This document shows, in pieces, positions 18,897-38,390 of a DNA stretch of 64,000 bases. Origin of the DNA: Nemertoderma westbladi (lineage: Eukaryota > Animalia > Xenacoelomorpha); contig JAUCBJ010007749.1 in NCBI GenBank assembly GCA_032718475.1, forward strand, positions 5,291 through 69,290, read 5' to 3'. The notes beneath the pieces were generated by a model. It had not been told where the DNA came from, did not search any database, and was given only the letters and a program-made list of their open reading frames with translations. Made by a program: the position numbers and the translations under genes. Position 1 is the stretch's first letter. The number at the start of each line of letters is the position of its first letter.

Positions 18897-18902
18897 TTTA
18901 TT
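18897..18902 (-). promoter_or_regulatory. Candidate polyadenylation signal of the giant SepSecS-like gene
   Basis: AATAAA on the minus strand ~185 nt past the TAG stop. The AT-rich context weakens the call. Confidence 0.35.
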
Positions 18903-19087
18903 AGAATAAAAGAAAAGGAGAAATACTATTCAGTAAATAGTATAATTTAAACAGTATATACATATATATATATAATATAAATATACTGTACAATACACTG
19001 CAATTGAAAGTCTCAAACAACAATCGTTTAAGAGTAATTTATAAATGAATCCCAAAGAAATATAAATTTTAAGAATAGGCCTACAAT

Positions 19088-22000
19088 CTATTTCCCACGT
19101 GAAAACAACCCTAATAACCCACTCACCACATGGCTTACAATTGAAAACTTTCTTGGTTTTCCACTTTTTGAACCATCCGTTTCATTTAAAGAGGTAACAA
19201 CATTATTAGAAGAAACCCCACCCTCTACTTGCACACACTCCCATCCTGAGTCAGTTTCTTCAGGAATGGGATCGTTGTCTGAACTGCAGTTATCCATCTC
19301 TATATCTGGAGATTCCACATGTTGTATTTTATCTATCTCTATATCAGGAGATTCCACATGTTGTATTCTATCTATCTCTATATCTGGAGATTCCACATGT
19401 TGTATTTTATCTATCTCTATATCTGGAGATTCATCATCTTGTATGTCATCTGTCTCTATAACATGAGATTCCTTATCAGTTTCTATATTAGGAGATTCCA
19501 CATGTTGTATTTTATCAGTCTCTCTAACTGGAGATTCGTCATGTTGTATGTTATCTGTCTCTATATCTGGAGATTCATCATGTTGTATGTTAATTGTCTC
19601 TATAACTGGAGATTCCTTATCAGTCTCTATATCTGGAGATTCCTTATCAGTCTCTATATCTGGAGATTCCTTATCCGTCTCTATATCTGGAGATTCCTTA
19701 TGTTGTATATTATCTGTCTCTATATCTAGAGATTCCACTTGTTGACTGTTATCTGTCTCTATATCTGGAGATTCCTTATCCGTCTCTATATCTGGAGATT
19801 CATCATGTTGTATGTTATCTGTCTCTATATCTGGAGATTCCACATGTTGTATGTTATCCGTCTCCATAACTGGAGATTCCACATGTTGTATATTATCAGT
19901 CTCTTTATCTGGAGATTCCACATGTTGTATGTTATCAGTCTCTATATCTGGAGATTTCACATGTTGTATTTTATTAGTCTCTATAACTGGAGATTCCTCA
20001 TGTTGTATGTTATCAGTCTCTATATCTGGAGATTCATCATGTTGTATGTTATCTGTCTCTATAACTGGAGATTCCTTATCAGTCTCTATATCTGGAGATT
20101 CCTCATGTTCTATGTTAACCGTCTCTATATCTGGAGATTCCTTATGTTGTATTTTATCAGTCTCTATATCTGAAGATTCCACATGTTGTATTTTATCAGT
20201 CTCTATAACTGGAGATTCTTCATGTTGTATGTTAACCGTCTCTATATCTGGAGATTCCTTATGTTGTATTTTATCAGTCTCTATATCTGGAGATTCCACA
20301 TGTTGTATTTTATCAGTCTCTCTAACTGGAGATTCGTCATGTTGTATGTTATCTGTCTCTATATCTGGAGATTCATCATGTTGCATGTTAATTGTCTCTA
20401 TAACTGGAGATTCCTTATCAGTCTCTATATCTGGAGATTCCTTATCAGTCTCTATATCTGGAGATTCCTTATCAGTCTCTATATCTGGAGATTCTTCACG
20501 TTCTATGTTAACCGTCTCTACATCTGGAGATTCCTTATGTTGTATATTATCAGTCTCTATATCAGGAGATTCTTCATGTTGTATGTTATCCATCTCTATA
20601 TCTGGAGATTCCACTTGTTGACTGTTATCAGTCTCTATATCTGGAGATTCCTTAGGCATCTCTATATCTGGAGATTCCTTATGTTGTATTTTATCAGTCT
20701 CCATAACTGGAGATTCCACATGTTGTATATTATCAGTCTCTATATCTGGAGATTCCTTATGTTGTATTTTATCAGTCTCTATAACTGGAGATTCCTCATG
20801 TTGTCTGTTATCCATCTCTATATCTGGAGATTCCACTTGTTGACTGTTATCAGTCTCTATATCTGGAGATTCCTTATGCATCTCTATATCTGGAGATTCC
20901 TTATGTTGTATTTTATCAGTCTCTATATCTGGAGATTCCACATGTTGTATATTATCAGTCTCTTTATCTGGAGATTCCACATGTTGTATTTTATCAGTCT
21001 CTATATCTGGAGATTCCACATGTTGTATGTTATCCGTCTCTATATCTGGAGATTCCTTATGTTGTATTTTATCAGTCTCTATATCTGGAGATTCCACATG
21101 TTGTATATTATCAGTCTCTTTATCTGGAGATTCCACATGTTGTATTTTATCAGTCTCTATATCTGGAGATTCCACTTGTTGTATGTTATCTGTCTCTATA
21201 TCTGGAGATTCCACATGTTGTATATTATCAGTCTCTTTATCTGGAGATTCCACATGTTGTATTTTATCAGTCTCTATATCTGGAGATTCCACATGTTGTA
21301 TGTTATCCGTCTCTATATCTGGAGATTCCTTATGTTGTATTTTATCAGTCTCTATATCTGGAGATTCCACATGTTGTATATTATCAGTCTCTTTATCTGG
21401 AGATTCCACATGTTGTATTTTATCAGTCTCTATATCTGGAGATTCCACTTGTTGTATGTTATCTGTCTCTATATCTGGAGATTCCACATGTTGTATGTTA
21501 TCCGTCTCTATATCTGGAGATTCCTTATGTTGTATTTTATCAGTCTCTATATCTGGAGATTCCACATGTTGTATATTATCAGTCTCTTTATCTGGAGATT
21601 CCACATGTTGTATTTTATCAGTCTCTATATCTGGAGATTCCACTTGTTGTATGTTATCTGTCTCTATATCTGGAGATTCCACATGTTGTATATTATCAGT
21701 CTCTTTATCTGGAGATTCCACATGTTGTATTTTATCAGTCTCTATATCTGGAGATTCCACATGTTGTATGTTATCCGTCTCTATATCTGGAGATTCCTTA
21801 TGTTGTATTTTATCAGTCTCTATATCTGGAGATTCCACATGTTGTATATTATCAGTCTCTTTATCTGGAGATTCCACATGTTGTATTTTATCAGTCTCTA
21901 TATCTGGAGATTCCACTTGTTGTATGTTATCTGTCTCTATATCTGGAGATTCCACATGTTGTATATTATCAGTCTCTTTATCTGGAGATTCCACATGTTG

Positions 22001-25000
22001 TATGTTATCCATCTCTATATCTGGAGATTCCTCATGTTGTATGTTATCCGTCTCTATATCTGGAGATTCATCATGTTGTATGTTATCTGTCTCTATATCT
22101 GGAGATTCCTCATGTTGTATGTTATCCATCTCTATATCTGGAGATTCCTCATGTTGTATATTATCAGTCTCTATATCTGGAGATTCATCATGTTGTATGT
22201 TATCTGTCTCTATAACTGGAGATTCCTTATCAGTCTCCATAACTGGAGATTCCACATGTTGTATGTTATCCATCTCTATATCTGGAGATTCCTCATGTTG
22301 TATGTTATCAGTCTCTATATCTGGAGATTCATCATCTTGTATGTCATCTGTCTCTATAATTTGAGATTCCTTACCAGTTTCTATATTAGGAGATTCCTCA
22401 TGTTGTATATTAGCAGTCTCTATATCTGGAGATTCCTCATGTTGTATGTTATTAGTCTCTATATCTGGAGATTCATCATCTTGTATGTCATCTGTCTCTA
22501 TAACTTGAGATTCCTTACCAGTTTCTATATTAGGAGATTCCTCATGTTGTATATTATCAGTCTCTATATCTGGAGATTCCTCATGTTGTATGTTATCCAT
22601 CTCTATATCTGGAGATTCCTCATGTTGTATGTTATCAGTCTCTATATCTGGAGATTCATCATCTTGTATGTCATCTGTCTCTATAACTTGAGATTCCTTA
22701 CCAGTTTCTATATTAGGAGATTCCTCATGTTGTATATTATCAGTCTCTATATCTGGAGATTCCTCATGTTGTATGTTATTAGTCTCTATATCTGGAGATT
22801 CATCATCTTGTAAGTCATCTGTCTCTATAACTTGAGATTCCTTACCAGTTTCTATATTAGGAGATTCCCCATGTTGTATATTATCAGTCTCTATATCTGG
22901 AGATTCCACATGTTGTATGTTATCCATCTCTATATCTGGAGATTTCTCATGTTGTATATTATCAGTCTCTATATCTGGAGATTCATCATGTTGTATGTTA
23001 TCCGTTTCTATATCTGGAGATTTTTTATCAGTCTCTATATCTGGAGATTCTTTATCCGTCTCTATATCTGGAGATTCTTTATCCGTCTCTATATCTGGAG
23101 ATTTCTTATCCGTCTCTATATCTGGAGATTCATCATGTTGTATGTTATCCGTCTCTATATCTGGAGATTCCTCATGTTGTATGTTATCTGTCTCTATATC
23201 TGGAGATTCATCATGTTGTATGTTATCAGTCTCTATATCTGGAGATTCATCATGTTGTATGTTATCTGTCTCTATAACTGGAGATTCCGTATCATTCTCT
23301 ATTTCTGGAGATTCCTCATGTTGTATATTATCAGTCTCCATATCTGGAGATTCCACATGTTGTATATTATCCGTCTCTATATCTGAAGATTTCTTATCAA
23401 TCTCTATATCTGGAGATTCTTTATCAGTCTCTATATCTAGAGATTCCTCATGTTGTATATTATCAGTCTCTATATCTGGAGATTCATCATGTTGTATGTT
23501 ATCTGTCTCTATAACTGGAGATTCCTTATCATTCTCTATAACTGGAGATTCCTCATGTTGTATATTATCAGTCTCCATATCTGGAGATTCCACATGTTGT
23601 ATATTATCAGTCTCTATATCTGGAGATTCCACATGTTGTATGTTATCCATCTCTATATCTGGAGATTCCTCATGTTGTATATTATCAGTCTCTATATCTG
23701 GAGATTCATCATGTTGTATGTTATCTGTCTCTATAACTGGAGATTCCTTATCATTATCTATATCTGGAGATTCCACATGTTGTATTTTATCAGTCTCTAT
23801 ATCTGGAGATTCCTTATGTTGTATTTTATCAGTCTCCATAACTGGAGATTCCCCATGTTGTCTGTTATCCGTCCCTATATCTGGAGATTCCTCATGTTGT
23901 AAATTATCAGTCTCTATATCTGGAGATTCCTTATCATTCTCTATTTCTGGAGATTCATCATGTGGTATATTATCAGTCTCTATATCTGGAGATTCATCAT
24001 GTTGTATGTTATCCGTCTCTATACCTGGAGATTCCTCATGTTGTATATTATCAGTCTCTATATCTGGAGATTCCTCATGTTGTATATTATCTGTCTCTAT
24101 AACTGGAGATTCGTCATGTTGTATGTTATCTGTCTCTATATCTGGAGATTCATCATGTTGTATGTTATCTGTCTCTATATCTGGAGATTCATCATGTTGT
24201 ATATTATCAGTCTCTATATCTGGAGATTCCTCATGTAGTATGTTATCTGTCTCTATAACTGGAGATTCGTCATGTTGTATGTAATCTGTCTCTATAACTG
24301 GAGATTCCTTATGTTGTATGTTATCAGTCTCTATATCTGGAGATTCCTCATGTTCTATGTTAACCGTCTCTATATCTGGAGATTCCACATGTTGTATTTT
24401 ATCCGTCTCTATAACCGGAGATTCCTCATGTTGTATATTATCAGTCTCTATATCTGGAGATTCCTCATGTTGTATATTATCTGTCTCTATATCTGGAGAT
24501 TCATCATGTTGTATGTTATCTGTCTCTATATCTGGAGATTCCTTATGTTGTATATTATCAGTCTCTATATCTGGAGATTCCTCATGTTGTATGTTATCTG
24601 TCTCTATAACTGGAGATTCGTCATGTTGTATGTTATCCGTATCTATATCGGGAGATTCCACTTGTTGACTGTTATCCGTATCTATATCTGGAGATTCCTC
24701 ATGTTGTATCTTATCTGTCTCTATAACTGGAGATTCCTTATCCTTCTCTATATCTTGAGATCCCTTATCCGTCTCTATAACCGGAGATTCCTCATGATGT
24801 ATGTTATCCGTCTCTATATCTGGAGATTCCACTTGTTGACTGTTATCTTTCTCTATATCTGTAGAATCCTCATGTTGTATGTTATCAGTCTCTATACCTG
24901 GAGATTCCTTATGTTGTATTTTATCAGTCTCTATACCTGGAGAATCCTCATGTTGTATGTTATCAGTCTCTATATCTGGAGATTCGTTATGTTGTATTTT

Positions 25001-28000
25001 ATCAGTCTCTATATCTGGAGATTCCACATGTTGTATTTTATCAGTCTCTATATCTGGAGATTCCTTATGTTGTTTGTTATCCATCTCTATACCTGGAGAA
25101 TCCTCATGTTGTATGTTATCAGTCTCTATATCTGGAGATTCCTTATGTTGTATTTTATCAGTCTCTATATCTGGAGATTCCACATGTTGTATTTTATCAG
25201 TCTCTATATCTGGAGATTCCACATGTTGTATTTTATCAGTCTCTATATCTGGAGATTCCACTTGTTGTATTTTATCAGTCTCTATACCTGGAGAATCCTC
25301 ATGTTGTATGTTATCAGTCTCTATACCTGGAGATTCCTTATGTTGTATTTTATCAGTCTCTATACCTGGAGAATCCTCATGTTGTATGTTATCAGTTTCT
25401 ATATCTGGAGATTCCTTTTGTTGTATTTTATCAGTCTCTATATCTGGAGATTCCACATGTTGTATTTTATCAGTCTCTATATCTGGAGATTCCTTATGTT
25501 GTTTGTTATCCATCTCTATACCTGGAGAATCCCCATGTTGTATGTTATCAGTCTCTATATCTGGAGATTCATCATGTTGTATGTTATCAGTCTCTATATC
25601 TGGATATTCCTCATGTTGTATTTTATCAGTCTCTATAACTGGAGATTCCTTATGTTGTATTTTATCAGTCTCCATAACTGGAGATTTCACATCTTGTATA
25701 TTATCAGTCTCTATATCTGGAGATTCCTTATCCATCTCTATATCTGGAGATTCCTTATGTTGTATTTTATCAGTCTCCATAACTGGAGATTCCACATGTT
25801 GTATATTATCAGTCTCTATATCTGGAGATTCCTTATCCATCTCTATTTCTGGAGATTCCTTATGTTGTATTTTATCAGTCTCCATAACTGGAGATTCCAC
25901 ATGTTGTATATTATCAGTCTTTATATCTGGAGATTCCTTATGTTGTATGTTATCCATTTCTATATCTGGAGATTCCTTATGTTGTATGTTATCCATCTCT
26001 ATATCTGGAGATTCCACTTGTTGACTGTTATCAGTCTCTATATCTGGAGATTCCTCATGTTGTATGTTATCTTTCTCTATATCTGGAGATTCCTTATGTT
26101 GTATTTTATCAGTCTCTATAACTGGAGATTCCACATGTTGTATATTATCAGTCTCTATATCTGGAGATTCCTTTTCCATCTCTATATCTGGAGATTCCTT
26201 ATGTTGTATTTTATCAGTCTCCATAACTGGAGATTCCACATGTTGTATATTATCAGTCTTTATATCTGGAGATTCCTTATGTTGTATGTTATCCATTTCT
26301 ATATCTGGAGATTCCTTATGTTGTATGTTATCCATCTCTATATCTGGAGATTCCACTTGTTGACTGTTATCAGTCTCTATATCTGGAGATTCCTCATGTT
26401 GTATGTTATCTTTCTCTATATCTGGAGATTCCTTATGTTGTATGTTATCCATCTCTATATCTGGAGATTCCACTTGTTGACTGTTATCAGTCTCTATATC
26501 TGGAGATTCCTCATGTTGTATGTTATCTTTCTCTATATCTGGAGATTCTTTATGTTGTATGTTATCCATCTCTATATCTGGAGATTCCACTTGTTGACTG
26601 TTATCAGTCTCTATATCTGGAGATTCCTCATGTTGTATGTTATCTTTCTCTATATCTGGAGATTCCTTATGTTGTATGTTATCCATCTCTATATCTGGAG
26701 ATTCCACTTGTTGACTGTCATCAGTCTCTATATCTGGAGATTCCTTATCCATCTCTATATCTGGAGTTTCCTTATGTTGTATTTTATCAGTCTCCATAAC
26801 TGGAGATTTCACATCTTGTATATTATCAGTCTCTATATCTGGAGATTCCTTATGTTGTATGTTATCCATCTCTATATCTGGAGATTCCACTTGTTGACTG
26901 TCATCAGTCTCTATATCTGGAGATTCCTTATCCATCTCTATATCTGGAGTTTCCTTATGTTGTATTTTATCAGTCTCCATAACTGGAGATTTCACATGTT
27001 GTATATTATCAGTCTCTATATCTGGAGATTCCTCATGTTCTATGTTTTCCGTCTCTATATCTGGAGATTCCTCATGTTCTACATTATCAGTCTCTATATC
27101 TGGAAATTCCTCATGTTGTATGTTATCAGTCTCTACACCTGGAGAATCCTCATGTTGTCTGTTATCAGTCTCTATAACTGGAGATTCCTTATGTTGTATG
27201 TTATCAGTCTCTATATCTAGAGATTCCTCATGTTGTATGTTATCAGTCTCTATATCTAGAGATTCCACTTGTTGTAAGTTATCAGTCTCTATAACTGGAG
27301 TTTCTTTATCATTATCTTTATCTGGAGATTCATCATGTTGTATGTTATCCGTCTCTATATCTGGAAATTCCTCATGTTGTATATTATCAGTCTCTATAAC
27401 TGGAGATTCCTTATCATTCTCTATATTTGGGGATCCCTTATCAGTCTCTATAACTTGAGATTCCTCATGTTGTATGTTATTAGTCTCTATACCTGGAGAA
27501 TCCTCATGTTCTCTGTTATCAGTCTCTATATCTGGAGATTCCTTATGTTGTATATTATCAGTCTCTATATCTGGAGATTCCTCATGTTCTACATTATCAG
27601 TCTCTATATCTGGAAATTCCTCATGTTGTATGTTATCAGTCTCTACACCTGGAGAATCCTCATGTTGTCTGTTATCAGTCTCTATAACTGGAGAGTCCTC
27701 ATGTTGTATATTATCAGTCTCTATAACTGGAGATTCCTTATCATTCTCTATATCTGGGGATCCCTTATCAGTCTCTATAACTTGAGATTCCTCATGTTGT
27801 ATGTTATTAGTCTCTATACCTGGAGAATCCTCATGTTCTCTGTTATCAGTCTCTATATCTGGAGATTCCTTATGTTGTATATTATCAGTCTCTATACCTG
27901 GAGAATCCTCATGTTGTCTGTTATCAGTCTCTATAACTGGAGAGTCCTCATGTTGTTTATTATCAGTCTCTATAACTGGAGATTCCTTATGTTGTATATT

Positions 28001-31000
28001 ATCAGTCTCTATATCTGGAGATTCCTTATGTTGTATATTATCAGTCTCTATATCTGGAAATTCCTCATGTTGTCTGTTATCAGTCTCTATAACTGGAGAG
28101 TCCTCATGTTGTTTATTATCAGTCTCTATAACTGGAGATTCCTTATGTTGTATATTATCAGTCTCTATATCTGGAGATTCCTTATGTTGTATATTATCAG
28201 TCTCTATATCTGGAAATTCCTCATGTTGTCTGTTATCAGTCTCTATAACTGGAGAGTCCTCATGTTGTTTATTATCAGTCTCTATAACTGGAGATTCCTT
28301 ATGTTGTATGTTATCAGTCTCTATATCTGGAGATTCCACTTGTTGACTGTTATCTTTCTCTATATCTGGAGATTCCTTATCAGTCTCTATATCTGGAGAT
28401 TCCTTATCAGTCTCTATATCTGGAGATTCCTTATCATTCTCTATAACTGGAGATTCCTTATCAGTCTCTATATCTGGAGATTCCTTATCAGTCTCTATAT
28501 CTGGATATTCCTTATCAGTCTCTATATCTGGAGATTCCTTATCATTCTCTATAACTGGAGATTCCTTATCAGTCTCTGTATCTGGATATTCCTTATCTGT
28601 CTCTATAACTGGAGATTCCTTATCATTCTCTATAACTGGAGATTCATCATGTTGTATGTTATCAGTCTCTATATCTGGAGATTCATCATGTTGTATGTTA
28701 TCAGTCTCTATATCTGGAGATTCCTTATCATTCTCTATTTCTGGAGATTCATCATGTTGTATGTTATCAGTCTCTATATCTGGAGATTCCTTATCAGTCT
28801 TTATATCTGGAGATTCCTTATCAGTCTCTATATCTGGAGATTCATCATGTTGTATGTTATCAGTCTCTATATCTGGAGGTTCCTTATGTTGTATATTATC
28901 CGTCTCTATATCTGGAGATTCCACTTGTTGACTGTTAGGCCTATCTGTCTCTATATCTGGAGATTCCTTATCAGTCTCTATATCTGGAGATTTCTTATCA
29001 TTCTCTATATCTGGAGATTCCTTATCAGTCTCTGTATCTGGATATTCCTTATCTGTCTCTATAACTGGAGATTCCTTATCATTCTCTATATTTGGAGATT
29101 CATCATGTTGTATGTTATCCGTCTCTATATCTGGAGATTCCTTATCTGTCTCTATATCTGGAGATTCCTTATCAGTCTCTATATCTGGAGATTTCTTATC
29201 ATTCTCTATATCTGGAGATTCCTTATCAGTCTCTGTATCTGGATATTCCTTATCTGTCTCTATAACTGGAGATTCCTTATCATTCTCTATATCTGGAGAT
29301 TCATCATGTTGTATGTTATCCGTCTCTATATCTGGAGATTCCTTATCTGTCTCTATAACTGGAGATTCCTTATCTGTCTCTATATCTGGAGATTCCTTAT
29401 CATTCTCTATATCTGGAGATTCCACTTGTTGACTGTTATCTGTCTCTATATCTGGAGATTCCTTATCAGTCTCTATATCTGGAGATTCCTTATCAGTCTC
29501 TGTATCAGGAGATTCCTTATCAGTCTCTATATCTGGAGATTCCTTATCTGTCTCTATATCTGGAGATTCCACTTGTTGACTGTTATCTGTCTCTATATCT
29601 GGAGATTCCTTATCAGTCTCTATATCTGGAGATTCCTTATCAGTCTCTATATCTGGAGATTCCTTATCAGTCTCTATATCTGGAGATTCCTTATCTGTCT
29701 CTATATCTGGAGATTCCACTTGTTGACTGTTATCAGTCTCTATAACTGGAGATTCTTTATCATTATCTTTATCTGGAGATTCATCATGTTGTATGTTATC
29801 CGTATCTATATCGGGAGATTCCACTTGTTGACTGTTATCTTTCTCTGAATCAGGAGATTCCTTATCAGTCTCTATATCTGGAGATTCCTTATCTGTCTCT
29901 ATATCTGGAGATTCCACTTGTTGACTGTTATCAGTCTCTATAACTGGAGATTCTTTATCATTATCTTTATCTGGAGATTCATCATGTTGTATGTTATCCG
30001 TATCTATATCGGGAGATTCCACTTGTTGACTGTTATCTTTCTCTATATCTGGAGATTCCTTATCAGTCTCTATATCTGGAGATTCCACTTGTTGTAAGTT
30101 ATCAGTCTCTATAACTGGAGATTCTTTATCATTATCTTTATCTGGAGATTCATCATGTTGTATGTTATCCGTATCTATATCGGGAGATTCCACTTGTTGA
30201 CTGTTATCTTTCTCTATATCTGGAGATTCCTTATCAGTCTCTATATCTGGAGATTCCACTTGTTGTAAGTTATCAGTCTCTATAACTGGAGATTCTTTAT
30301 CATTATCTTTATCTGGAGATTCATCATGTTGTATGTTATCCGTATCTATATCGGGAGATTCCACTTGTTGACTGTTATCTGTCTCTATATCTGGATATTC
30401 CTTATCAGTCTCTATATCTGGAGATTCCTTATCAGTCTCTATATCTGGAGATTCCTTATCCGTATCTATATCTGGAGATTCCACTTGTTGTAAGTTATCA
30501 GTCTCTATAACTGGAGATTCTTTATCATTATCTTTATCTGGAGATTCATCATGTTGTATGTTATCAGTCTCTATATCGGGAGATTCCACTTGTTGACTGT
30601 TATCTGTCTCTATATCTGGAGATTCCTTATCAGTCTCTATATCTGGAGATTCCACTTGTTGTAAGTTATCAGTCTCTATAACTGGAGATTCTTTATCATT
30701 ATCTTTATCTGGAGATTCATCATGTTGTATGTTATCAGTCTCTATATCGGGAGATTCCACTTGTTGACTGTTATCTGTCTCTATATCTGGAGATTCCTTA
30801 TCAGTCTCTATATCTGGAGATTCCTTATCCGTATCTATATCTGGAGATTCCACTTGTTGACTGTTATCCGTCTCTATATCTGGAGATTCCTTATCATTCT
30901 CTATATCTGGAGATTCCTCATGTTGTATGTTATCAGTCTCTATATCGGGAGATTCCTTATCATTCTCTATATCTGGAGATTCCTCATGTTGTATGTTATC

Positions 31001-34000
31001 AGTCTCTATATCGGGAGATTCCACTTGTTGACTGTTATCTTTCTCTATATTTGGAGATTCCTTATCAGTCTCTATATCTGGAGATTCCACTTGTTGACTG
31101 TTATCTTTCTCTGAATCAGGAGATTCCTTATCAGTCTCTATATCTGGAGATTCCTTATCTGTCTCTATATCTGGAGATTCCACTTGTTGACTGTTATCAG
31201 TCTCTATAACTGGAGATTCTTTATCATTATCTTTATCTGGAGATTCATCATGTTGTATGTTATCAGTCTCTATATCTGGAGATTCCTCATGTTGTACGTT
31301 ATCCGTCTCTATATCTGGAGATTCCTTATCATTCTCTATATCTGGAGATTCCTCATGTTGTATGTTATCAGTCTCTATATCGGGAGATTCCACTTGTTGA
31401 CTGTTATCTTTCTCTATATTTGGAGATTCCTTATCAGTCTCTATATCTGGAGATTCCACTTGTTGACTGTTATCTTTCTCTATATCTGGAGATTCCTTAT
31501 CAGTCTCTATATCTGGAGATTCCTTATCAGTCTCTATATCTGGAGATTCCTTATCAATCTCTGTATCTGGATATTCCTTATCAGTCTCTATATCTGGAGA
31601 TTCCTTATCATTCTCTATAACTGGAGATTCCTTATCATTCTCTATATCTGGAGATTCATCATGTTGTATGTTATCCGTCTCTATATCTGGAGATTCCACT
31701 TGTTGACTGTTAGGCCTATCTGTCTTTATATCTGGAGATTCCTTATCAGTCTCTATATCTGGAGATTCCTTATCAGTCTCTATATCTGGAGATTCCTTAT
31801 CAGTCTCTGTATCTGGAGATTCCTTATCTGTCTCTATATCTGGAGATTCCACTTGTTGACTGTTATCTGTCTCTATATCTGGAGATTCCTTATCAGTCTC
31901 TATATCTGGAGATTCCTTATCAGTCTCTATATCTGGAGATTCCTTATCAGTCTCTGTATCAGGAGATTCCTTATCAGTCTCTATATCTGGAGATTCCTTA
32001 TCTGTCTCTATATCTGGAGATTCCACTTGTTGACTGTTATCTGTCTCTATATCTGGAGATTCCTTATCAGTCTCTATATCTGGAGATTCCTTATCAGTCT
32101 CTATATCTGGAGATTCCTTATCAGTCTCTGTATCAGGATATTCCTTATCAGTCTCTATATCTGGAGATTCTTTATCTGTCTCTATATCTGGAGATTCCAC
32201 TTGTTGACTGTTATCTGTCTCTATATCTGGAGATTCCTTATCAGTCTCTATATCTGGAGATTCCTTATCCGTCTCTATCACTGGAGATTCCTTATGTTGT
32301 ATGTTATCTTTCTCTATATCTGGGGATTCCTTATCAGTCTCTATATCTGTAGAATCCTCATGTTGTATATTATCAGTCTCTATAACTGGATATTCCATAT
32401 CATTCTCTATATCTGGAGATTCCTCATGTTGTATATTATCTGTCTCTATATCTGGAGATTCATCATGTTGTATATTATCAGTCTCTATATCTGGAGATTC
32501 CTTATCCGTCTCTATATCTGGAGATTCCACATGTTGTATATTATCCGTCTCTATAACTGGAGATTCCTCATGTTGTATATTATCAGTCTCTATATCTGGA
32601 GATTCCTTATGTTGTATATTATCAGTCTCTATAACTGGATATTCCATATCATTCTCTATAACTGGAGATTCCTCCTGTTGTATATTATCAGTCTCTATAT
32701 CTGGAGATTCCTCCTGTTGTATATTATCAGTCTCTATATCTGGAGATTCATCATGTTGTATGTTATCAGTCTCTAAAACTGGAGATTCATCATGTTGTAT
32801 GTTATCCGTATCTATATCTGGAGATTTCACTTGTTGACTGTTATCCGTCTCTATATCTGGAGATTCCACTTGTTGACTGTTATCAGTCTCTATATCTGGA
32901 GATTCCTTATCATTCTCTATATCTGGAGATTCCTCATGTTGTATGTTATCAGTCTCTAAAACTGGAGATTCCTCATGTTGTATGTTATCAGTCTCTATAT
33001 CTGGAGATTCCTCATGTTGTATGTTATCAGTCTCTATATCTGGAGATTCCTCATGTTGTATGTTATCAGTCTCTATATCTGGAGATTCCTCATGTTGTAT
33101 GTTATCAGTCTCTATAACTTGAGATTCCACATGTTGTATGTTATCAGTCTCTATATCTGGAGATTCCTCATGTTGTATGTTATCAGTCTCTATATCTGGA
33201 GATTCCACTTGTTGACTGTTATCAGTCTCTATATCTGGAGATTCCTTATGTTGTACGTTATCCGTCTCTATATCTGGAGATTCCTTATCATTCTCTATAA
33301 CTGGAAATTCCTCATGTTGTATATTATCAGTCTCTATATCTGGAGATTCCACTTGTTGACTGTTATCAGTCTCTATATCTGGAGATTCCTTATGTTGTAC
33401 GTTATCCGTCTCTATATCTGGAGATTCCTCATGTTGTATATTATCAGTCTCTATATCTGGAGATTCCACTTGTTGACTGTTATCTGTCTCTATATCTGGA
33501 GATTCCTCATCAGTCTCTATATCTGGAGATTCCTTATCAGTCTCTATATCTGGAGATTCCTCATGTTGTATGATATCCATCTCTATATCTGGAGATTCCT
33601 CATGTTCTATGTTAACCGTCTCTATATCTGGAGATTCCTTATCAGTCTCTATATCTGGAGATTCCACATGTTGTATATTATCCGTCTCTATAACTGGAAA
33701 TTCCTCATGTTGTATATTATCAGTCTCTATATCTGGAGATTCCACTTGTTGACTGTTATCTGTCTCTATATCTGGAGATTCCTCATCAGTCTCTATATCT
33801 GGAGATTCCTTATCAGTCTCTATATCTGGAGATTCCTCATGTTGTATGATATCCATCTCTATATCTGGAGATTCCTCATGTTCTATGTTAACCGTCTCTA
33901 TATCTGGAGATTCCTTATCAGTCTCTATATCTGGAGATTCCACTTGTTGTATGTTATCTGTCTCTATAACTGGAGATTCCTTATGTTGTATATTATCTGT

Positions 34001-37000
34001 CTCTATAACTGGAGATTCCTTATGTTGTATATTATCTGTCTCTATAACTGGAGATTCCACTTGTTGTATGTTATCTGTCTCTATAACTGGAGATTCCTTA
34101 TCAGTCTCTATATCTGGAGATTCATCATGTTGTATATTATCTGTCTCTATATCTGGAGATTCCACTTGTTGACTTTTATCTGTCTCTATATCTGGAGATT
34201 CCTTATCAGTCTCTATATCTGGAGATTCCACTTGTTGTATGTTATCTGTCTCTATAACTGGAGATTCCTTATGTTGTATATTATCTGTCTCTATAACTGG
34301 AGATTCCTTATGTTGTATATTATCTGTCTCTATAACTGGAGATTCCTCATGTTGTATATTATCAGTCTCTATATCTGGAGATTTCACTTGTTGTATGTTA
34401 TCTGTCTCTATAACTGGAGATTCCTTATGTTGTATATTATCTGTCTCTATAACTGGAGATTCCTCATGTTGTATATTATCAGTCTCTATATCTGGAGATT
34501 CCACTTGTTGTATGTTATCTGTCTCTATAACTGGAGATTCCTTATGTTGTATATTATCTGTCTCTATATCTGGAGATTCCACTTGTTGACTGTTATCCGT
34601 ATCTATATCTGGAGATTCCTCATGTTGTATGTTATCTGTCTCTATAACTGGAGATTCCTTATGTTGTATATTATCAGTCTCTATAACTGGAGATTCTTTA
34701 TCATTATCTTTATCTGGAGATTCATCATGTTGTATGTTATCTGTCTCTATAACTGGAGATTCCTTATGTTGTATATTATCTGTCTCTATATCTGGAGATT
34801 CCTTATCATTCTCTATATCTGGAGATTCCTTATCAGTCTCTATATCTGGAGATTCCACTTGTTGTAAGTTATCAGTCTCTATAACTGGAGATTCTTTATC
34901 ATTATCTTTATCTGGAGATTCATCATGTTGTATGTTATCTGTCTCTATATCTGGAGATTCCTCATGTTGTATGTTATCTGTCTCTATAACTGGAGATTCC
35001 TTATGTTGTATATTATCAGTCTCTATAACTGGAGATTCTTTATCATTATCTTTATCTGGAGATTCATCATGTTGTATGTTATCTGTCTCTATAACTGGAG
35101 ATTCCTTATGTTGTATATTATCTGTCTCTATATCTGGAGATTCCTTATCATTCTCTATATCTGGAGATTCCTTATCAGTCTCTATATCTGGAGATTCCAC
35201 TTGTTGTAAGTTATCAGTCTCTATAACTGGAGATTCTTTATCATTATCTTTATCTGGAGATTCATCATGTTGTATGTTATCCGTATCTATATCGGGAGAT
35301 TCCACTTGTTGACTGTTATCTTTCTCTATATCTGGAGATTCCTTATCAGTCTCTATATCTGGAGATTCATCATGTTGTATGTTATCCGTCTCTATATCTG
35401 GAGATTCCACTTGTTGACTGTTATCTGTCTCTATATCTGGAGATTCCTTATCATTCTCTATATCTGGAGATTCATCATGTTGTATGTTATCCGTCTCTAT
35501 ATCTGGAGATTCCACTTGTTGACTGTTATCTGTCTCTATATCTGGAGATTCCTTATCATTCTCTATATCTGGAGATTCATCATGTTGTATATTATCAGTC
35601 TCTATATCTGGAGATTCATCATGTTGTATGTTATCCGTCTCTATATCTGGAGATTCCACTTGTTGACTGTTATCTGTCTCTGTATCTGGAGATTCCTTAT
35701 CAGTCTCTATATCTTGAGTATCTTGAGATTCATTATGTTCTATGTTACCAGTCTCTAAACCTGATGATTCGTCAGATGGTTTGTTAACATCATCATCGCC
35801 ATCAACATCATCAACAATGTCGGGCCCTTCTTTTATGGTCTGCAAACACTTTTTGAGTCGCTTTATTATGCACTCAGCGTCATTCTGAGTCAAACCGAAA
35901 GCTACAGTGCAGAGCAAATAAGGAAAGTGCTGATAGATGTTGTCATGGGAATCAAAGGTTATGAATTTGTGACATCCGATAAACTTCGCTTGTGTGTTGG
36001 ACTCAACAATTCGAATACCAAACATGTTAAAATGAGATAACATGGAATCCAAACGAGAGGCCTTGGAACCCAAAAGAGATGCTTTGCATGCAGTTAGTTT
36101 CGCGGCGGACTGGTATGTTTTTTGAGTGGCCTTCTGTTCTGTTGGTTGGGTGCCATTGTCGTCTGTTGGTTGGCTGTCGTTGTGGTCTGTTGGTTGGTTG
36201 CCATTGTGGTCTGTTGTTCGGGTGTTGTTGTTGTCTGTTGTTGGTTGGGTTTCGTTCTGATATATCTGATTAGACAATGTCATTGCTATAGATATTCCGT
36301 TGTGGGGAGTTTCTAAAACTTTCTCACCCAACTGCGCTGCTAAAGATGTTAGCTCACCCCTAAAATAACTATAAACGTATTTATGGCTACGCAATAATCC
36401 TAGGTACCCGTCCCTTCCCATAGATAAAAGTGTTATAAATACATCTACAATGGGGGCGGCACTGGCCCTACCAGGGTATGTTCCGCATACAAGTGAGATT
36501 AACTCCTCTTTGGGAGAGGCAATTATCGCTCCTCCTATTGGAACCATTAAATTTGTATGAGTACTCTGAACCACTAAGTCTATAAGACCATTATGTGAAG
36601 CCTCATCTACAAGTTGGCATAATTTATTGTTTAGTAGGCCGTGGTCGTTGTTTACCAGATGAAACACACTAAACCGTCGACAAATCAATCCGACCAGTTC
36701 TAATTGGTCTGCAACGCTAGGAGCGAAGCTTGACGTAGTCGAGAGAACGCAGAGGACCAGCGACCGATTTATCTCCAAGAGTTTATTCTCTATCTCCAAG
36801 ATATCGCTAGTTAATTCGTCTCCAACAAAATTATTTTCAACCACAACCGGTTCCATTCCCGCTGCGGTAATGAATTTGTAACAGGATTTCTGTTCATTTC
36901 GTGGCAAAATTACGTATTTCGCGGTCGGTTTTTTACCTTTAAGTGCCAATAAACAAAGTGTCAGCGCCATTTCCGTAGCTTCAGGGACAATTACGCAACC

Positions 37001-37408
37001 TGAGATGGAGTTTATCCCGCATAGTTTGAATGCGTCTAATACAAGGTCGTTAGCGAGTTTATTTAGGAGACTAGAACCAGACGCTTTGGGATGGGATGCA
37101 GCTATATCCTCTGATAGACTTATACCGTGTGTCAACCGGAAGTGACGTCTTTCGACGAGATCAGAGTATAAACGGCCCCCCCTCTCGCCGGCGGCGATTT
37201 TGCCAGGTAAGTTCTTGGTATCCATGGCAGACAGCTGATTTAGTAATAACTCAATGGTAACATCGTCCCAACCTTGGCTAGGGATTTTTCTGTGTTCTAG
37301 AAGGTTACGAATTAGGTTGTATTGCGATTGGAGTCCTTCCTGACATTGCTGGATGTTTGTTTTTGGGACAAGGCTTTCTAAAAAGGGAAACCCATTGGAA
37401 TCAGTCAT
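19088..37408 (-). CDS. SEPSECS-like: Giant intronless protein (6,106 aa from ATG 37408): degenerate SepSecS (O-phosphoseryl-tRNA(Sec) selenium transferase)-like domain fused to ~5,500 aa of acidic tandem repeats
   Basis: The N-terminus matches SepSecS throughout: GWDDVTIE, GERGGR, RRHFRLTHGI, PKASGSSLLNK, QKSC, STTSSFAP, MVPIGGAII, YPGRASA, TPHNGISIAMTL, IKRLKKCL. The frame is open to TAG at 19090-19088. The track's start at 37438 is TTG; the first ATG is 37408. Confidence 0.85.
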   Translation of the reverse strand: MTDSNGFPFLESLVPKTNIQQCQEGLQSQYNLIRNLLEHRKIPSQGWDDVTIELLLNQLSAMDTKNLPGKIAAGERGGRLYSDLVERRHFRLTHGISLSEDIAASHPKASGSSLLNKLANDLVLDAFKLCGINSISGCVIVPEATEMALTLCLLALKGKKPTAKYVILPRNEQKSCYKFITAAGMEPVVVENNFVGDELTSDILEIENKLLEINRSLVLCVLSTTSSFAPSVADQLELVGLICRRFSVFHLVNNDHGLLNNKLCQLVDEASHNGLIDLVVQSTHTNLMVPIGGAIIASPKEELISLVCGTYPGRASAAPIVDVFITLLSMGRDGYLGLLRSHKYVYSYFRGELTSLAAQLGEKVLETPHNGISIAMTLSNQIYQNETQPTTDNNNTRTTDHNGNQPTDHNDSQPTDDNGTQPTEQKATQKTYQSAAKLTACKASLLGSKASRLDSMLSHFNMFGIRIVESNTQAKFIGCHKFITFDSHDNIYQHFPYLLCTVAFGLTQNDAECIIKRLKKCLQTIKEGPDIVDDVDGDDDVNKPSDESSGLETGNIEHNESQDTQDIETDKESPDTETDNSQQVESPDIETDNIQHDESPDIETDNIQHDESPDIENDKESPDIETDNSQQVESPDIETDNIQHDESPDIENDKESPDIETDNSQQVESPDIETDNIQHDESPDIETDKESPDIEKDNSQQVESPDIDTDNIQHDESPDKDNDKESPVIETDNLQQVESPDIETDKESPDIENDKESPDIETDNIQHKESPVIETDNIQHDESPDKDNDKESPVIETDNIQHKESPVIETDNIQHEESPDIETDNIQHDESPDKDNDKESPVIETDNLQQVESPDIETDKESPDIENDKESPDIETDNIQHKESPVIETDNIQHDESPDKDNDKESPVIETDNIQHKESPVIETDNIQHEESPDIDTDNSQQVESPDIETDNIQHKESPVIETDNIQQVESPDIETDNIQHEESPVIETDNIQHKESPVIETDNIQQVKSPDIETDNIQHEESPVIETDNIQHKESPVIETDNIQHKESPVIETDNIQQVESPDIETDKESPDIETDKSQQVESPDIETDNIQHDESPDIETDKESPVIETDNIQQVESPVIETDNIQHKESPVIETDNIQHKESPVIETDNIQQVESPDIETDKESPDIETVNIEHEESPDIEMDIIQHEESPDIETDKESPDIETDEESPDIETDNSQQVESPDIETDNIQHEEFPVIETDNIQHVESPDIETDKESPDIETVNIEHEESPDIEMDIIQHEESPDIETDKESPDIETDEESPDIETDNSQQVESPDIETDNIQHEESPDIETDNVQHKESPDIETDNSQQVESPDIETDNIQHEEFPVIENDKESPDIETDNVQHKESPDIETDNSQQVESPDIETDNIQHEESPDIETDNIQHVESQVIETDNIQHEESPDIETDNIQHEESPDIETDNIQHEESPDIETDNIQHEESPVLETDNIQHEESPDIENDKESPDIETDNSQQVESPDIETDNSQQVKSPDIDTDNIQHDESPVLETDNIQHDESPDIETDNIQQEESPDIETDNIQQEESPVIENDMEYPVIETDNIQHKESPDIETDNIQHEESPVIETDNIQHVESPDIETDKESPDIETDNIQHDESPDIETDNIQHEESPDIENDMEYPVIETDNIQHEDSTDIETDKESPDIEKDNIQHKESPVIETDKESPDIETDKESPDIETDNSQQVESPDIETDKESPDIETDKEYPDTETDKESPDIETDKESPDIETDKESPDIETDNSQQVESPDIETDKESPDIETDKESPDTETDKESPDIETDKESPDIETDKESPDIETDNSQQVESPDIETDKESPDTETDKESPDIETDKESPDIETDKESPDIKTDRPNSQQVESPDIETDNIQHDESPDIENDKESPVIENDKESPDIETDKEYPDTEIDKESPDIETDKESPDIETDKESPDIEKDNSQQVESPDIETDKESPNIEKDNSQQVESPDIETDNIQHEESPDIENDKESPDIETDNVQHEESPDIETDNIQHDESPDKDNDKESPVIETDNSQQVESPDIETDKESPDIETDKESPDSEKDNSQQVESPDIETDKESPNIEKDNSQQVESPDIETDNIQHEESPDIENDKESPDIETDNIQHEESPDIENDKESPDIETDNSQQVESPDIDTDKESPDIETDKESPDIETDNSQQVESPDIETDNIQHDESPDKDNDKESPVIETDNLQQVESPDIETDKESPDIETDNSQQVESPDIETDNIQHDESPDKDNDKESPVIETDNLQQVESPDIDTDKESPDIETDKESPDIETDKEYPDIETDNSQQVESPDIDTDNIQHDESPDKDNDKESPVIETDNLQQVESPDIETDKESPDIEKDNSQQVESPDIDTDNIQHDESPDKDNDKESPVIETDNLQQVESPDIETDKESPDIEKDNSQQVESPDIDTDNIQHDESPDKDNDKESPVIETDNSQQVESPDIETDKESPDIETDKESPDSEKDNSQQVESPDIDTDNIQHDESPDKDNDKESPVIETDNSQQVESPDIETDKESPDIETDKESPDIETDKESPDIETDKESPDIETDNSQQVESPDIETDKESPDIETDKESPDTETDKESPDIETDKESPDIETDNSQQVESPDIENDKESPDIETDKESPVIETDKESPDIETDNIQHDESPDIENDKESPVIETDKEYPDTETDKESPDIENDKKSPDIETDKESPDIETDKESPDIETDNIQHDESPNIENDKESPVIETDKEYPDTETDKESPDIENDKKSPDIETDKESPDIETDRPNSQQVESPDIETDNIQHKEPPDIETDNIQHDESPDIETDKESPDIKTDKESPDIETDNIQHDESPEIENDKESPDIETDNIQHDESPDIETDNIQHDESPVIENDKESPVIETDKEYPDTETDKESPVIENDKESPDIETDKEYPDIETDKESPDIETDKESPVIENDKESPDIETDKESPDIETDKESPDIEKDNSQQVESPDIETDNIQHKESPVIETDNKQHEDSPVIETDNRQHEEFPDIETDNIQHKESPDIETDNIQHKESPVIETDNKQHEDSPVIETDNRQHEEFPDIETDNIQHKESPDIETDNIQHKESPVIETDNKQHEDSPVIETDNRQHEDSPGIETDNIQHKESPDIETDNREHEDSPGIETNNIQHEESQVIETDKGSPDIENDKESPVIETDNIQHEDSPVIETDNRQHEDSPGVETDNIQHEEFPDIETDNVEHEESPDIETDNIQHKESPDIETDNREHEDSPGIETNNIQHEESQVIETDKGSPNIENDKESPVIETDNIQHEEFPDIETDNIQHDESPDKDNDKETPVIETDNLQQVESLDIETDNIQHEESLDIETDNIQHKESPVIETDNRQHEDSPGVETDNIQHEEFPDIETDNVEHEESPDIETENIEHEESPDIETDNIQHVKSPVMETDKIQHKETPDIEMDKESPDIETDDSQQVESPDIEMDNIQHKESPDIETDNIQDVKSPVMETDKIQHKETPDIEMDKESPDIETDDSQQVESPDIEMDNIQHKESPDIEKDNIQHEESPDIETDNSQQVESPDIEMDNIQHKESPDIEKDNIQHEESPDIETDNSQQVESPDIEMDNIQHKESPDIEKDNIQHEESPDIETDNSQQVESPDIEMDNIQHKESPDIEMDNIQHKESPDIKTDNIQHVESPVMETDKIQHKESPDIEMEKESPDIETDNIQHVESPVIETDKIQHKESPDIEKDNIQHEESPDIETDNSQQVESPDIEMDNIQHKESPDIEMDNIQHKESPDIKTDNIQHVESPVMETDKIQHKESPEIEMDKESPDIETDNIQHVESPVMETDKIQHKESPDIEMDKESPDIETDNIQDVKSPVMETDKIQHKESPVIETDKIQHEEYPDIETDNIQHDESPDIETDNIQHGDSPGIEMDNKQHKESPDIETDKIQHVESPDIETDKIQQKESPDIETDNIQHEDSPGIETDKIQHKESPGIETDNIQHEDSPGIETDKIQQVESPDIETDKIQHVESPDIETDKIQHVESPDIETDKIQHKESPDIETDNIQHEDSPGIEMDNKQHKESPDIETDKIQHVESPDIETDKIQHNESPDIETDNIQHEDSPGIETDKIQHKESPGIETDNIQHEDSTDIEKDNSQQVESPDIETDNIHHEESPVIETDKGSQDIEKDKESPVIETDKIQHEESPDIDTDNSQQVESPDIDTDNIQHDESPVIETDNIQHEESPDIETDNIQHKESPDIETDNIQHDESPDIETDNIQHEESPDIETDNIQHEESPVIETDKIQHVESPDIETVNIEHEESPDIETDNIQHKESPVIETDYIQHDESPVIETDNILHEESPDIETDNIQHDESPDIETDNIQHDESPDIETDNIQHDESPVIETDNIQHEESPDIETDNIQHEESPGIETDNIQHDESPDIETDNIPHDESPEIENDKESPDIETDNLQHEESPDIGTDNRQHGESPVMETDKIQHKESPDIETDKIQHVESPDIDNDKESPVIETDNIQHDESPDIETDNIQHEESPDIEMDNIQHVESPDIETDNIQHVESPDMETDNIQHEESPVIENDKESPVIETDNIQHDESPDIETDNIQHEESLDIETDKESPDIEIDKKSSDIETDNIQHVESPDMETDNIQHEESPEIENDTESPVIETDNIQHDESPDIETDNIQHDESPDIETDNIQHEESPDIETDNIQHDESPDIETDKKSPDIETDKESPDIETDKESPDIETDKKSPDIETDNIQHDESPDIETDNIQHEKSPDIEMDNIQHVESPDIETDNIQHGESPNIETGKESQVIETDDLQDDESPDIETNNIQHEESPDIETDNIQHEESPNIETGKESQVIETDDIQDDESPDIETDNIQHEESPDIEMDNIQHEESPDIETDNIQHEESPNIETGKESQVIETDDIQDDESPDIETNNIQHEESPDIETANIQHEESPNIETGKESQIIETDDIQDDESPDIETDNIQHEESPDIEMDNIQHVESPVMETDKESPVIETDNIQHDESPDIETDNIQHEESPDIEMDNIQHEESPDIETDNIQHDESPDIETDNIQHEESPDIEMDNIQHVESPDKETDNIQHVESPDIETDNIQQVESPDIETDKIQHVESPDKETDNIQHVESPDIETDKIQHKESPDIETDNIQHVESPDIETDKIQHVESPDKETDNIQHVESPDIETDNIQQVESPDIETDKIQHVESPDKETDNIQHVESPDIETDKIQHKESPDIETDNIQHVESPDIETDNIQQVESPDIETDKIQHVESPDKETDNIQHVESPDIETDKIQHKESPDIETDNIQHVESPDIETDKIQHVESPDKETDNIQHVESPDIETDNIQQVESPDIETDKIQHVESPDKETDNIQHVESPDIETDKIQHKESPDIETDNIQHVESPDIETDKIQHVESPDKETDNIQHVESPDIETDKIQHKESPDIEMHKESPDIETDNSQQVESPDIEMDNRQHEESPVIETDKIQHKESPDIETDNIQHVESPVMETDKIQHKESPDIEMPKESPDIETDNSQQVESPDIEMDNIQHEESPDIETDNIQHKESPDVETVNIEREESPDIETDKESPDIETDKESPDIETDKESPVIETINMQHDESPDIETDNIQHDESPVRETDKIQHVESPDIETDKIQHKESPDIETVNIQHEESPVIETDKIQHVESSDIETDKIQHKESPDIETVNIEHEESPDIETDKESPVIETDNIQHDESPDIETDNIQHEESPVIETNKIQHVKSPDIETDNIQHVESPDKETDNIQHVESPVMETDNIQHVESPDIETDNIQHDESPDIETDKESPDIETDNSQQVESLDIETDNIQHKESPDIETDKESPDIETDKESPDIETDKESPVIETINIQHDESPDIETDNIQHDESPVRETDKIQHVESPNIETDKESHVIETDDIQDDESPDIEIDKIQHVESPDIEIDRIQHVESPDIEIDKIQHVESPDIEMDNCSSDNDPIPEETDSGWECVQVEGGVSSNNVVTSLNETDGSKSGKPRKFSIVSHVVSGLLGLFSRGK
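19285..35765 (-). repeat. Coding minisatellite of ~16.5 kb made of mixed 39-bp (ESPDIETDNIQHx) and 27-bp (ESPDIETDK) units, roughly 450-500 units
   Basis: The core gtctctatatctggagattc repeats throughout. Every length variant I saw is a multiple of 3 (27, 39, 45 bp). Confidence 0.95.
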
Positions 37409-37652
37409 AGTTATGATATAATTCAATTCTTTGATCAAATTTAAACTTCATAATTAGGATTTATCATCGTAAGTATAAGTTGATCCAATTCGCCATAAAA
37501 TATGCTTTCGAGGCATTTGCGATGAGACGTGGTAATTTGCATTATATTATTTTACTTTTTACATTAATCTATGAAACAGACAGCTCGATATCTGGATCTT
37601 TGGGGAACAGTATTATTACTAAATAAGAACTAAGGATTGGAACTAAGAACTA

Positions 37653-38390
37653 AGGGCCGGATTTAGAGTGGTGGGGTGGCCTGGGGCCGGGTCAGTGGTG
37701 GGGGGCCTGGGCTCAACTGTATACCTTTCAAAGAAACCTGAATGTAGATGTAAAAATTTGGAAATTTCTGGAAATTTCCTATACATTTTCCGGAAAATTC
37801 CTATTTTATTAATTATTTTATTTAGCTCATTCTGAAAACATATAGTAAAACACAAGTAGAGTAAACAAAACACTAGAGACAATGGATTTCTGCTTAGATG
37901 TGTTTAGGTGGTTCGTTGTCTTGTCTCTTGTGGTCGTAACTACGGATGAAATATACTTTTCCGGAAATTTCCGAAATTTCCTTGAAAAACATTTTTCAGG
38001 AAAACTCACATCCCTATATATTAGACGTGGAAATTATGAATTTGAAACATGTTCCTGTTTATATCCGTATAAAAATATCTGATCCAAAAATGCCCAATTG
38101 AAATTGAAAGTGAAAAAAATTTACTTTCATAAGCTACAAAAATATTTACTGTTTTTCACACTAACTTTTTGTTTTAATTTTTCATATGGCAAAATTCAAA
38201 ATTGCCATGTTCGGTTTCAGTTCGTTTCCAGTTCGGCTCCTCGGCTCCTCTATAGTTTGGTCGATCCCTATAGTTGTGGGATCGTTGTGGGGGGCCCCTG
38301 TGGTGGGGGGCCCCTGTGGTGGGGGGCCTGGGGCCTCGGCCACTTCGCCCTTCGCTCCCCCCCCCCCCCCCCCCCCCTAAATACGGCCCT
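37653..38390. mobile_element. hAT-like MITE with a probable second element nested inside, ~250 bp upstream of the SepSecS-like start
   Basis: TIRs are AGGGCCGGATTTAG (37653-37666) and CTAAATACGGCCCT (38377-38390), with G-rich subterminal ggggcccc motifs. Internal ttccggaaatttcc repeats lie at 37760-38015. Confidence 0.6.

Follow-up and report, generated by a model that had tools for sequence, protein, structure and literature searches.

In a 64,000-nt stretch of contig JAUCBJ010007749.1 from Nemertoderma westbladi (assembly GCA_032718475.1, forward-strand positions 5,291 to 69,290; referred to below as the window), a single open reading frame on the minus strand (37408-19088) joins a selenocysteine (Sec) synthase fold, SepSecS, which judging by its sequence is very likely catalytically dead, to a giant acidic tandem-repeat array. 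The translation comprises 6,106 residues (695 kDa) with one terminal stop, and its parts follow in the order SepSecS head, acidic linker, acidic array of approximately 465 units and 66-residue tail. A preliminary description, made from the letters alone, had proposed an uninterrupted frame joining a SepSecS-like domain to a long repeat and a mass of approximately 0.7 MDa per chain, both of which agree with these values, whereas its tail of 65 residues proved one residue too short. It is quite probable that the locus encodes a genuine, translated fusion protein whose enzyme part is dead, a judgement that covers jointly three readings discussed below, in which the head serves as a hub, is carried as a passenger or acts as a regulatory paralog. 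The model proposed here, tentatively and with somewhat less than even probability, is a structural protein built from a dead SepSecS hub, a polyanionic spacer and an amphipathic membrane-binding tail.

Fold, active site and selection in the SepSecS head

Residues 1-527 match the Pfam profile PF05889 (E=2e-99), and the match to human SEPSECS (E=1e-117) is gap-free across residues 7-380, with a second block at 451-527; over residues 7-380 human numbering, used below, equals query numbering minus one. The ATG of the frame aligns with Met1 of 11 homologs. In Foldseek comparisons, the AlphaFold model of the head (predicted template-modelling score, pTM, 0.73) reached template-modelling (TM) scores of 0.83-0.90 against human and mouse SepSecS structures (7L1T: E=3e-44, TM 0.86) at 39-40% structural-alignment identity. 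The head thus carries the SepSecS profile and the fold type I architecture, so the full-length SepSecS-like domain of the preliminary description is confirmed; it shares with active SepSecS the whole fold and the N-terminal tetramer extension. Local identity to animal SepSecS orthologs does not exceed 51%, and no close relative occurs among the protein matches.

Unlike active SepSecS, the head has replaced the pyridoxal 5'-phosphate (PLP) lysine, the adjacent Asp, the Arg and Gln of the P-loop and the discriminator Arg398, and it has acquired a 60-residue insertion, which contains a 24-bp tandem repeat (36138-36247), as well as a 5,580-residue C-terminal extension. The substitutions comprise K284T, D283H, R97L, Q105H, G145E, A254D, Y255H, G96S and G99E, together with F396S and R398F in helix 14 (Phe at query position 460). 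The PLP lysine is present in all 120 close homologs (the best 120 of 282 matches) and in 146 of the 147 representatives aligned there (the best 150 of 1,908 matches, 3 being gapped at this position); the equivalent of Arg398 is Arg in 114 close homologs and variable farther out (91/119 aligned representatives). Of the 12 PLP and phosphate ligands identified in the archaeal enzyme, the head has lost half, three archaeal positions having been mapped to it by offset, and within the phosphate-binding set R75, R97, S98, Q105 and R313 the second has become Leu and the fourth His, with the rest intact. According to the archaeal mutagenesis study, the Lys and Asp mutants and the Arg94 mutants are inactive and the activity of the Gln102 mutant is strongly reduced (PMC2275076), and in the human enzyme R398A lowers tRNA affinity more than 10-fold (PMC10164584). 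Because the archaeal equivalents of K284T, D283H, R97L and Q105H abolish or strongly reduce activity, the head is very likely dead, as the preliminary description had suggested. A SepSecS homolog that fails the defining catalytic features is not to be classed as an active Sec synthase, and the head, an enzyme fold with its catalytic residues lost, resembles a pseudoenzyme in that respect. A search for tRNA and Rfam matches within the window returned none.

The preliminary description knew of no repeat-fused SepSecS, and none comparable was found in our protein and literature searches, the latter, directed at dead, duplicated or repeat-fused SepSecS, covering largely titles and the beginnings of abstracts. 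A search for longer SepSecS homologs (929-2,650 aa) yielded a single match, P0122; lengths above 2,650 aa were covered by the search of representatives, in which the longest of the best 150 of 1,908 matches has 1,130 aa. An exact look-up of four proteins of the window in a protein collection gave no match. P0122 is an intact SepSecS, with its Asp-Lys motif, joined to RRM, F-box and LRR domains and unrelated to the array; two mite SepSecS entries, P0061 and P0080, carry sarcoglycan-type domains, and all three are probably merged gene models. The 1,130-aa SepSecS, P0286, is 37% identical to the head and has Thr for the PLP lysine as well as A254V; most of its other ligands are intact, its extension consists of a Pro/Ala-rich region and an RRM, and it could represent a second, independently inactivated copy, an error of sequencing or two genes merged in one model.

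The head deviates from its family at 32 of 113 near-invariant columns (120 homologs: median 0, maximum 11), while the neighbouring PSMB3 deviates at 13 of 88, mainly by conservative changes. Neutral decay to the depth of the head (0.17 changes per base) should have introduced approximately 10 stops into its 530 codons, yet the head contains none (P=4e-5), which indicates that it is translated. Hydrophobic core columns have turned polar at 11/145 positions, mostly in active-site loops, compared with an expectation of 19.7 (P=0.017), residues that the family never shows occupy 30 of 352 less conserved columns against 46-48 expected (P=0.002-0.005), and the tetramer helices a1, a2 and a4 keep their hydrophobic character in 19/21 hydrophobic columns. 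Positions for ligands, the P-loop and tRNA bear more than their share of the losses (12/21 versus 20/92 elsewhere, P=0.002); this set was partly picked after the changes were known, and two positions were added to it by inspection. Measured against its own family, the branch of the head is 2.1x the typical depth and that of PSMB3 3.4x, so the head is not generally degraded. Together these data lend modest support to a retained head fold and tetramer core.

A head that is merely carried along is an unlikely but serious contender. A redundant SepSecS copy would then have provided the promoter, the start codon and the frame, and the polyanion and the tail would do the work, possibly as an ion buffer, crowding agent or spacer. 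The open head would be explained without further assumptions, since any stop in it also removes the array; 30 of the 32 invariant-site changes are single-base steps, as in drift, the deficit of family-unseen residues loses significance at a neutral distance of 0.12 (P=0.18-0.28), the insertion of 60 residues has been tolerated, and the charge of the head (-4) lies outside the range of its homologs (-1 to +15). However, a mere passenger would not be expected to lack deletions across residues 7-380, to lose residues preferentially at ligand, P-loop and tRNA sites, with the reservation on that set given above, or to spare its core and tetramer helices.

The position of the extension invites comparison with helix 16 of human SEPSECS, likewise an acidic extension behind helix 15, which is however helical, has 17 residues and docks on Arg398, a Phe here (PMC11602143, PMC10164584). 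A dead paralog might therefore enter active SEPSECS tetramers and regulate them, its arm occluding tRNA(Sec) binding as an extended helix 16. This reading, decidedly unlikely in our view, gains from the acidic character of the human helix, its location at the corresponding end and its blocking of the tRNA pocket (PMC10164584, PMC11602143), from literature examples of dead paralogs regulating active partners, and from the retention of R75 and R313, both of which function across the dimer interface. Yet helix 16, reported as a mammalian feature (PMC11602143), manages with 17 residues where the arm has 5,500, regulation gives no reason for a frame that is open as far as the tail, and no second SEPSECS copy with at least 80% DNA identity was found in sequencing runs X1-X3. 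At that threshold the cover of the head is flat, with a single contig per run, so no recent second copy is seen.

Repeat array, linker and tail

All 465 unit anchors of the array (16,443 nt, 5,481 codons) share the coding frame, and the unit lengths are without exception divisible by three: 39 nt (318 units), 27 nt (142), 45 nt (2), 36 nt (1) and 54 nt (1). The other five frames contain 20 to 1,040 stops across the same interval. Asp and Glu make up 34% of the residues, Lys and Arg 6% and Ile 12%, Cys and Trp being absent, and the net charge is -0.285 per residue, with 427 Ser-Pro sites; the D/E/S/P/T-rich composition proposed earlier is correct except that it omits Ile, the repeat being E/D/I/S/P/T-rich.

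A spanning-tree reconstruction yielded 228 substitution events in the array, none of which produced a stop, against 6.7-9.8 expected (P=5e-5 to 1e-3). Whereas three satellites elsewhere in the window accumulated 7 frameshifting indels per 91 substitutions, the array has 0 per 212 (Fisher P=3e-4). None of these controls, which have periods of 48, 27 and 36 nt, holds an open frame above 230 codons; two other analysed satellites, with periods of 20 and 41 nt, were excluded because these are not divisible by three. Synonymous and non-synonymous changes in the array (49/179) correspond to the neutral expectation (43-54/167-177). Taken together, the array tests indicate selection for the frame and not for the sequence. 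The array, claimed in the preliminary description to be translated protein, behaves as coding sequence, with no stops and no frameshifts, and its translation has good support; with its units in phase and with stops and frameshifts rarer than chance, it fits the class of coding tandem repeats of the disordered polyanion type.

The same data bear on the view that the locus is a decaying SEPSECS pseudogene in which a minisatellite expanded, one frame remaining open by chance. Such an origin would accord with the neutral amino-acid changes of the array and its divergence of only 7% from consensus, with a window full of satellites, and with the weaker result of the conservative stop test, in which each allele is counted once (0/8 reachable stop alleles versus 65/191 reachable alleles seen, P=0.03). 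It is nevertheless highly improbable, given the missing 10 or so stops in the head, the failure of all three control satellites with periods divisible by three to exceed 230 open codons, and the sense complementary DNA (cDNA) from the 3' end described below.

The last 19 codons before the array match the repeat unit closely enough (Table 1) to show that the array grades into the local linker. The proposal that the repeat grew out of the native acidic C-tail of SepSecS is therefore sustained as regards this gradation and not as regards a conserved native tail: acidic helix 16 is described as an innovation of mammals, and invertebrate extensions as lacking stable conservation (PMC11602143), so the linker is probably lineage-specific. 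Of the roles suggested earlier for the repeat (scaffold, spacer, cation buffer or nucleic-acid mimic), that of a spacer is favoured, since neutral change in the repeat sequence is more easily reconciled with a spacer than with a nucleic-acid mimic that depends on its sequence.

The unbroken frame of 5,481 codons points to some importance of the protein's end, or of its full length. The preliminary description had assigned no role to the tail, although the open frame extends as far as this segment. The predicted terminal helix comprises the last 19 residues, with Ser, His and Gly on its polar face, and we take it to resemble lipid-packing-sensor helices; its score is matched by 2.3% of 571 background frame ends (shuffle P=0.04), and 66 open codons are found at 2.6% of background positions. 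As no 19-residue window exceeds 1.6 on the Kyte-Doolittle scale, the tail is not a clear transmembrane anchor. A functional tail has modest support. The last 270 residues gave no usable Atlas match, and neither the last 100 nor the last 1,000 residues matched Pfam.

Assembly, transcription and the proposed model

Contigs from X1, X2 and X3, which represent two samples, match the window at 35685/35689-37703 and 18077/18080-19318/19326 with 0 differences and enter the array by 43-47 nt at the head end and by 30-38 nt at the tail end; being error-free, they join both array ends to unique flanks in read data. Run X5 represents a third sample from another study. The possibility of misassembly raised in the preliminary description is thus answered by short-read contigs for both junctions, while the array itself is spanned by no contig; since X1-X3 may moreover be the source data of the assembly, the length of the array rests on that assembly. 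These two circumstances, the first extending to individual reads among those examined, are what an assembly artefact creating the fusion or the array could appeal to. An artefact is extremely improbable even so: both junctions lie inside error-free contigs in three runs and two samples, X5 agrees with the tail junction over 400 nt, and with 184 of 464 units distinct and a longest exact internal copy of 500 nt, the array is unlike a product of duplicated reads. As a separate observation, contigs of runs X1, X3 and X5, drawn from different samples, show no difference from the window (35685-37703, 18080-19387), over approximately 3.2 kb in X3 and 0.4 kb in X5, which suggests very low polymorphism, as in an inbred or clonal stock, or shared material.

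The X5 contig also provides the evidence for transcription. At 19387 its sequence passes into 25 letters identical to a template-switch oligonucleotide as printed in two papers, and the orientation of this adapter identifies the RNA as the minus strand, i.e. the sense of the frame. The contig covers the last 33 array codons, the tail, the stop and 100 nt of the untranslated region (UTR); its repeat part differs by at least 8 of 96 bases from every other place in the array and therefore comes from this array end. Sense transcription of the 3' end thus has good support, and the earlier call for a check on expression is, for this end, met with an apparently positive answer. The contig may be a truncated copy of an 18-kb messenger RNA (mRNA). 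Among the runs searched, no RNA run containing the head was listed, and X5 gives no cover of the head; neither blank bears on expression.

Head and array could alternatively be expressed separately, from a shorter transcript holding the array end and the tail or in a spliced form, the long frame being incidental. The cDNA evidence is confined to a contig whose start, 19387, lies upstream of Met6038, 43 in-frame Met codons are present in the array, and the neighbouring AKAP17A-like gene demonstrates that 6.9-kb introns occur here. This arrangement is nonetheless very unlikely, as no stop codon closes the head and the frame is pure over all 16.4 kb, a purity that neither an intron nor an untranscribed array needs; besides, it is usual for cDNA from the 3' end of so long an mRNA (18 kb) to show template switching at a truncated 5' end.

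Under the proposed hub model, the dead SepSecS head would still fold and oligomerise, the array of each chain would form an extended charged spacer, and membrane attachment would fall to the predicted amphipathic helix at its tip. A tetramer would reach about 2.8 MDa and bear four arms, each with a contour length of up to about 2 micrometres; as a random coil, the array has a computed radius of gyration of 33 nm. The protein would be cytosolic, as no signal peptide is seen, and the arm could be tuned by phosphorylation at the 427 Ser-Pro sites. A secreted biomineral-matrix role was ranked low for want of a signal peptide. An argument for a retrocopy was also set aside: the intronless state of the SepSecS gene carries little information here, PSMB3 being intronless too and AKAP17A having a single intron in its aligned part.

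Several points weigh against the hub model. As regards the head, R75, S98, Q172, S174, N252 and R313 are retained, the AlphaFold model leans on an alignment of active enzymes, selection on the fold is supported to a moderate degree, with the drift-like single-base steps and the dependence on neutral distance noted above, and no relative was found that shows conservation of any part. As regards the array, the 228 substitution events include homoplasy, the conservative allele count brings the stop test to the P=0.03 given above, and the choice of the locus for its long frame inflates the open-frame tests. The tail statistics were computed after the features of the tail had been spotted, and its W-x-x-V motif, with acidic neighbours, conforms to the loose Atg8-interacting (LIR) pattern W-x-x-[LIV] but to neither the cLIR nor the xLIR pattern (PMC5119064). 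Finally, the cDNA support consists of a single contig with a depth of 12.8 from a run filed as 'DNA?', which has its start within the array, shows no poly(A) in the letters examined and leaves head and tail unconnected; it could derive from a short transcript encoding a 69-residue peptide that begins at Met6038.

Neighbouring features, comparable systems and significance

The window is animal-like and repeat-rich, and its features are collected in Table 1. The best matches of PSMB3 are 77% identical among themselves. The first exon of the AKAP17A-like gene, which alone has no Pfam match, was provisionally assigned by its resemblance to the N-terminus of the family. With PSMB3 intronless and divergent and AKAP17A of two exons only, the host is probably an intron-poor, fast-evolving animal; phylogenetic trees, affected by long branches, gave it no reliable placement. 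The interspersed element approximately 250 nt upstream of the SepSecS start has a depth of hundreds to thousands, compared with about 27 for unique DNA, and possibly consists of nested elements with inverted ends. Two plus-strand frames were taken by eye for retrotransposon fragments and have no Pfam match at E=0.001.

Table 1. Features of the 64,000-nt window, in window coordinates
Feature	Position	Strand	Basis or remark
Single open frame	19088..37408	-	6,106 aa, about 695 kDa, without signal peptide
Full-length SepSecS fold, aa 1-527; PLP, phosphate and tRNA sites eroded	35828..37408	-	Pfam, alignment, Foldseek
P-loop (human 96-107) with G96S, R97L, G99E, Q105H	37085..37120	-	alignment
His284-Thr285 codons in place of invariant Asp-Lys (human D283, K284; the latter the PLP Schiff-base lysine)	36554..36559	-	alignment
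Low-complexity in-frame insertion, approximately 60 aa (residues 385-445), between large and small domains	36074..36256	-	alignment, model
Acidic linker; last 19 codons are degenerate repeat units	35732..35827	-	43/56 nt match the unit
Array, approximately 465 units of 13 or 9 aa, ESPDIETD core, 5,481 aa	19289..35731	-	unit mapping
Unique 66-aa tail: acidic first half, basic patch, terminal helix	19091..19288	-	composition, helix prediction
W-x-x-V motif in acidic half of tail	19243-19232	-	pattern
Predicted C-terminal amphipathic helix, basic flanks	19091..19147	-	18-mer hydrophobicity 0.73, moment 0.44
Putative sense cDNA: last repeats, tail, at least 100 nt 3' UTR	18988..19387	-	442-nt X5 contig, exact match
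PSMB3 (proteasome beta-3), intronless, intact	57740-58357	+	61-63% identical to best matches
AKAP17A-like gene, two exons	9481-9048 and 2142-676	-	GT-AG intron of approximately 6.9 kb
Long interspersed nuclear element (LINE) remnants in AKAP17A intron	3282-4178; near 4834-5032		reverse-transcriptase-like frame; partial second copy
Tandem duplication, approximately 466 nt	13343-14516		78-84% identity
Multi-copy interspersed element	37653-38400		read depth
Fragments of non-LTR (long terminal repeat) retrotransposon proteins	42349-43584; 55750-56576	+	by eye
Satellite, period 48 nt, non-coding	44661-46955		
Satellite, period 27 nt (higher order 85 and 112), non-coding	48119-53794		
Satellite, period 36 nt, non-coding	58833-60146		
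Satellites, periods 20, 41 and 45 nt, non-coding	39186-39727; 47329-47608; 62323-64000		

One parallel in architecture is ClpGM6 of Trypanosoma brucei (PMC4121973), in which a dead enzyme domain is likewise combined with a very long tandem repeat in a giant structural protein. ClpGM6 has calpain-like domains at both ends, near-identical repeats of 68 residues and a demonstrated cytoskeletal role, and neither its sequence nor its lineage is related to that of the present protein. Another analogue is lengsin (PMC2667176), the pseudo-glutamine synthetase of the vertebrate lens: here too an oligomeric enzyme of metabolism gave up catalysis and was retained for a different function. Lengsin differs in lacking a giant repeat arm, in forming a dodecamer of another fold and in being conserved across vertebrates. 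In selenoprotein-less insects, SPS1 exemplifies a gene of the Sec pathway retained for a non-selenoprotein role but, unlike the gene described here, it stays conserved and unfused, while SecS is deleted or pseudogenised in these insects, the honeybee excepted (PMC2500217). In the available literature, no earlier SepSecS-derived pseudoenzyme was found, and the combination of a dead enzyme with a giant repeat is already known from ClpGM6.

SepSecS is known to serve a single purpose and to be highly conserved, and as a rule it is deleted after selenoprotein loss (PMC2500217). If the interpretation given here is true, the head would be the first SepSecS-derived pseudoenzyme found, in which the cofactor chemistry was shed, the fold kept and an arm of 5,500 residues gained, and it would signal a hidden SEPSECS duplication or the loss of selenocysteine in a further animal lineage. 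It is quite unlikely, though conceivable, that this gene is the sole SEPSECS of the organism, in which case selenocysteine synthesis would have been lost in an intron-poor, fast-evolving animal lineage and the orphaned tetramer would have become the hub of a 2.8-MDa four-armed polyanion, its micrometre-scale arms tipped with membrane-binding helices and tethering or spacing organelles. The locus would also offer a natural case of a new protein arising from a minisatellite, with the frame selected and not the sequence, and with adjacent non-coding satellites as controls.

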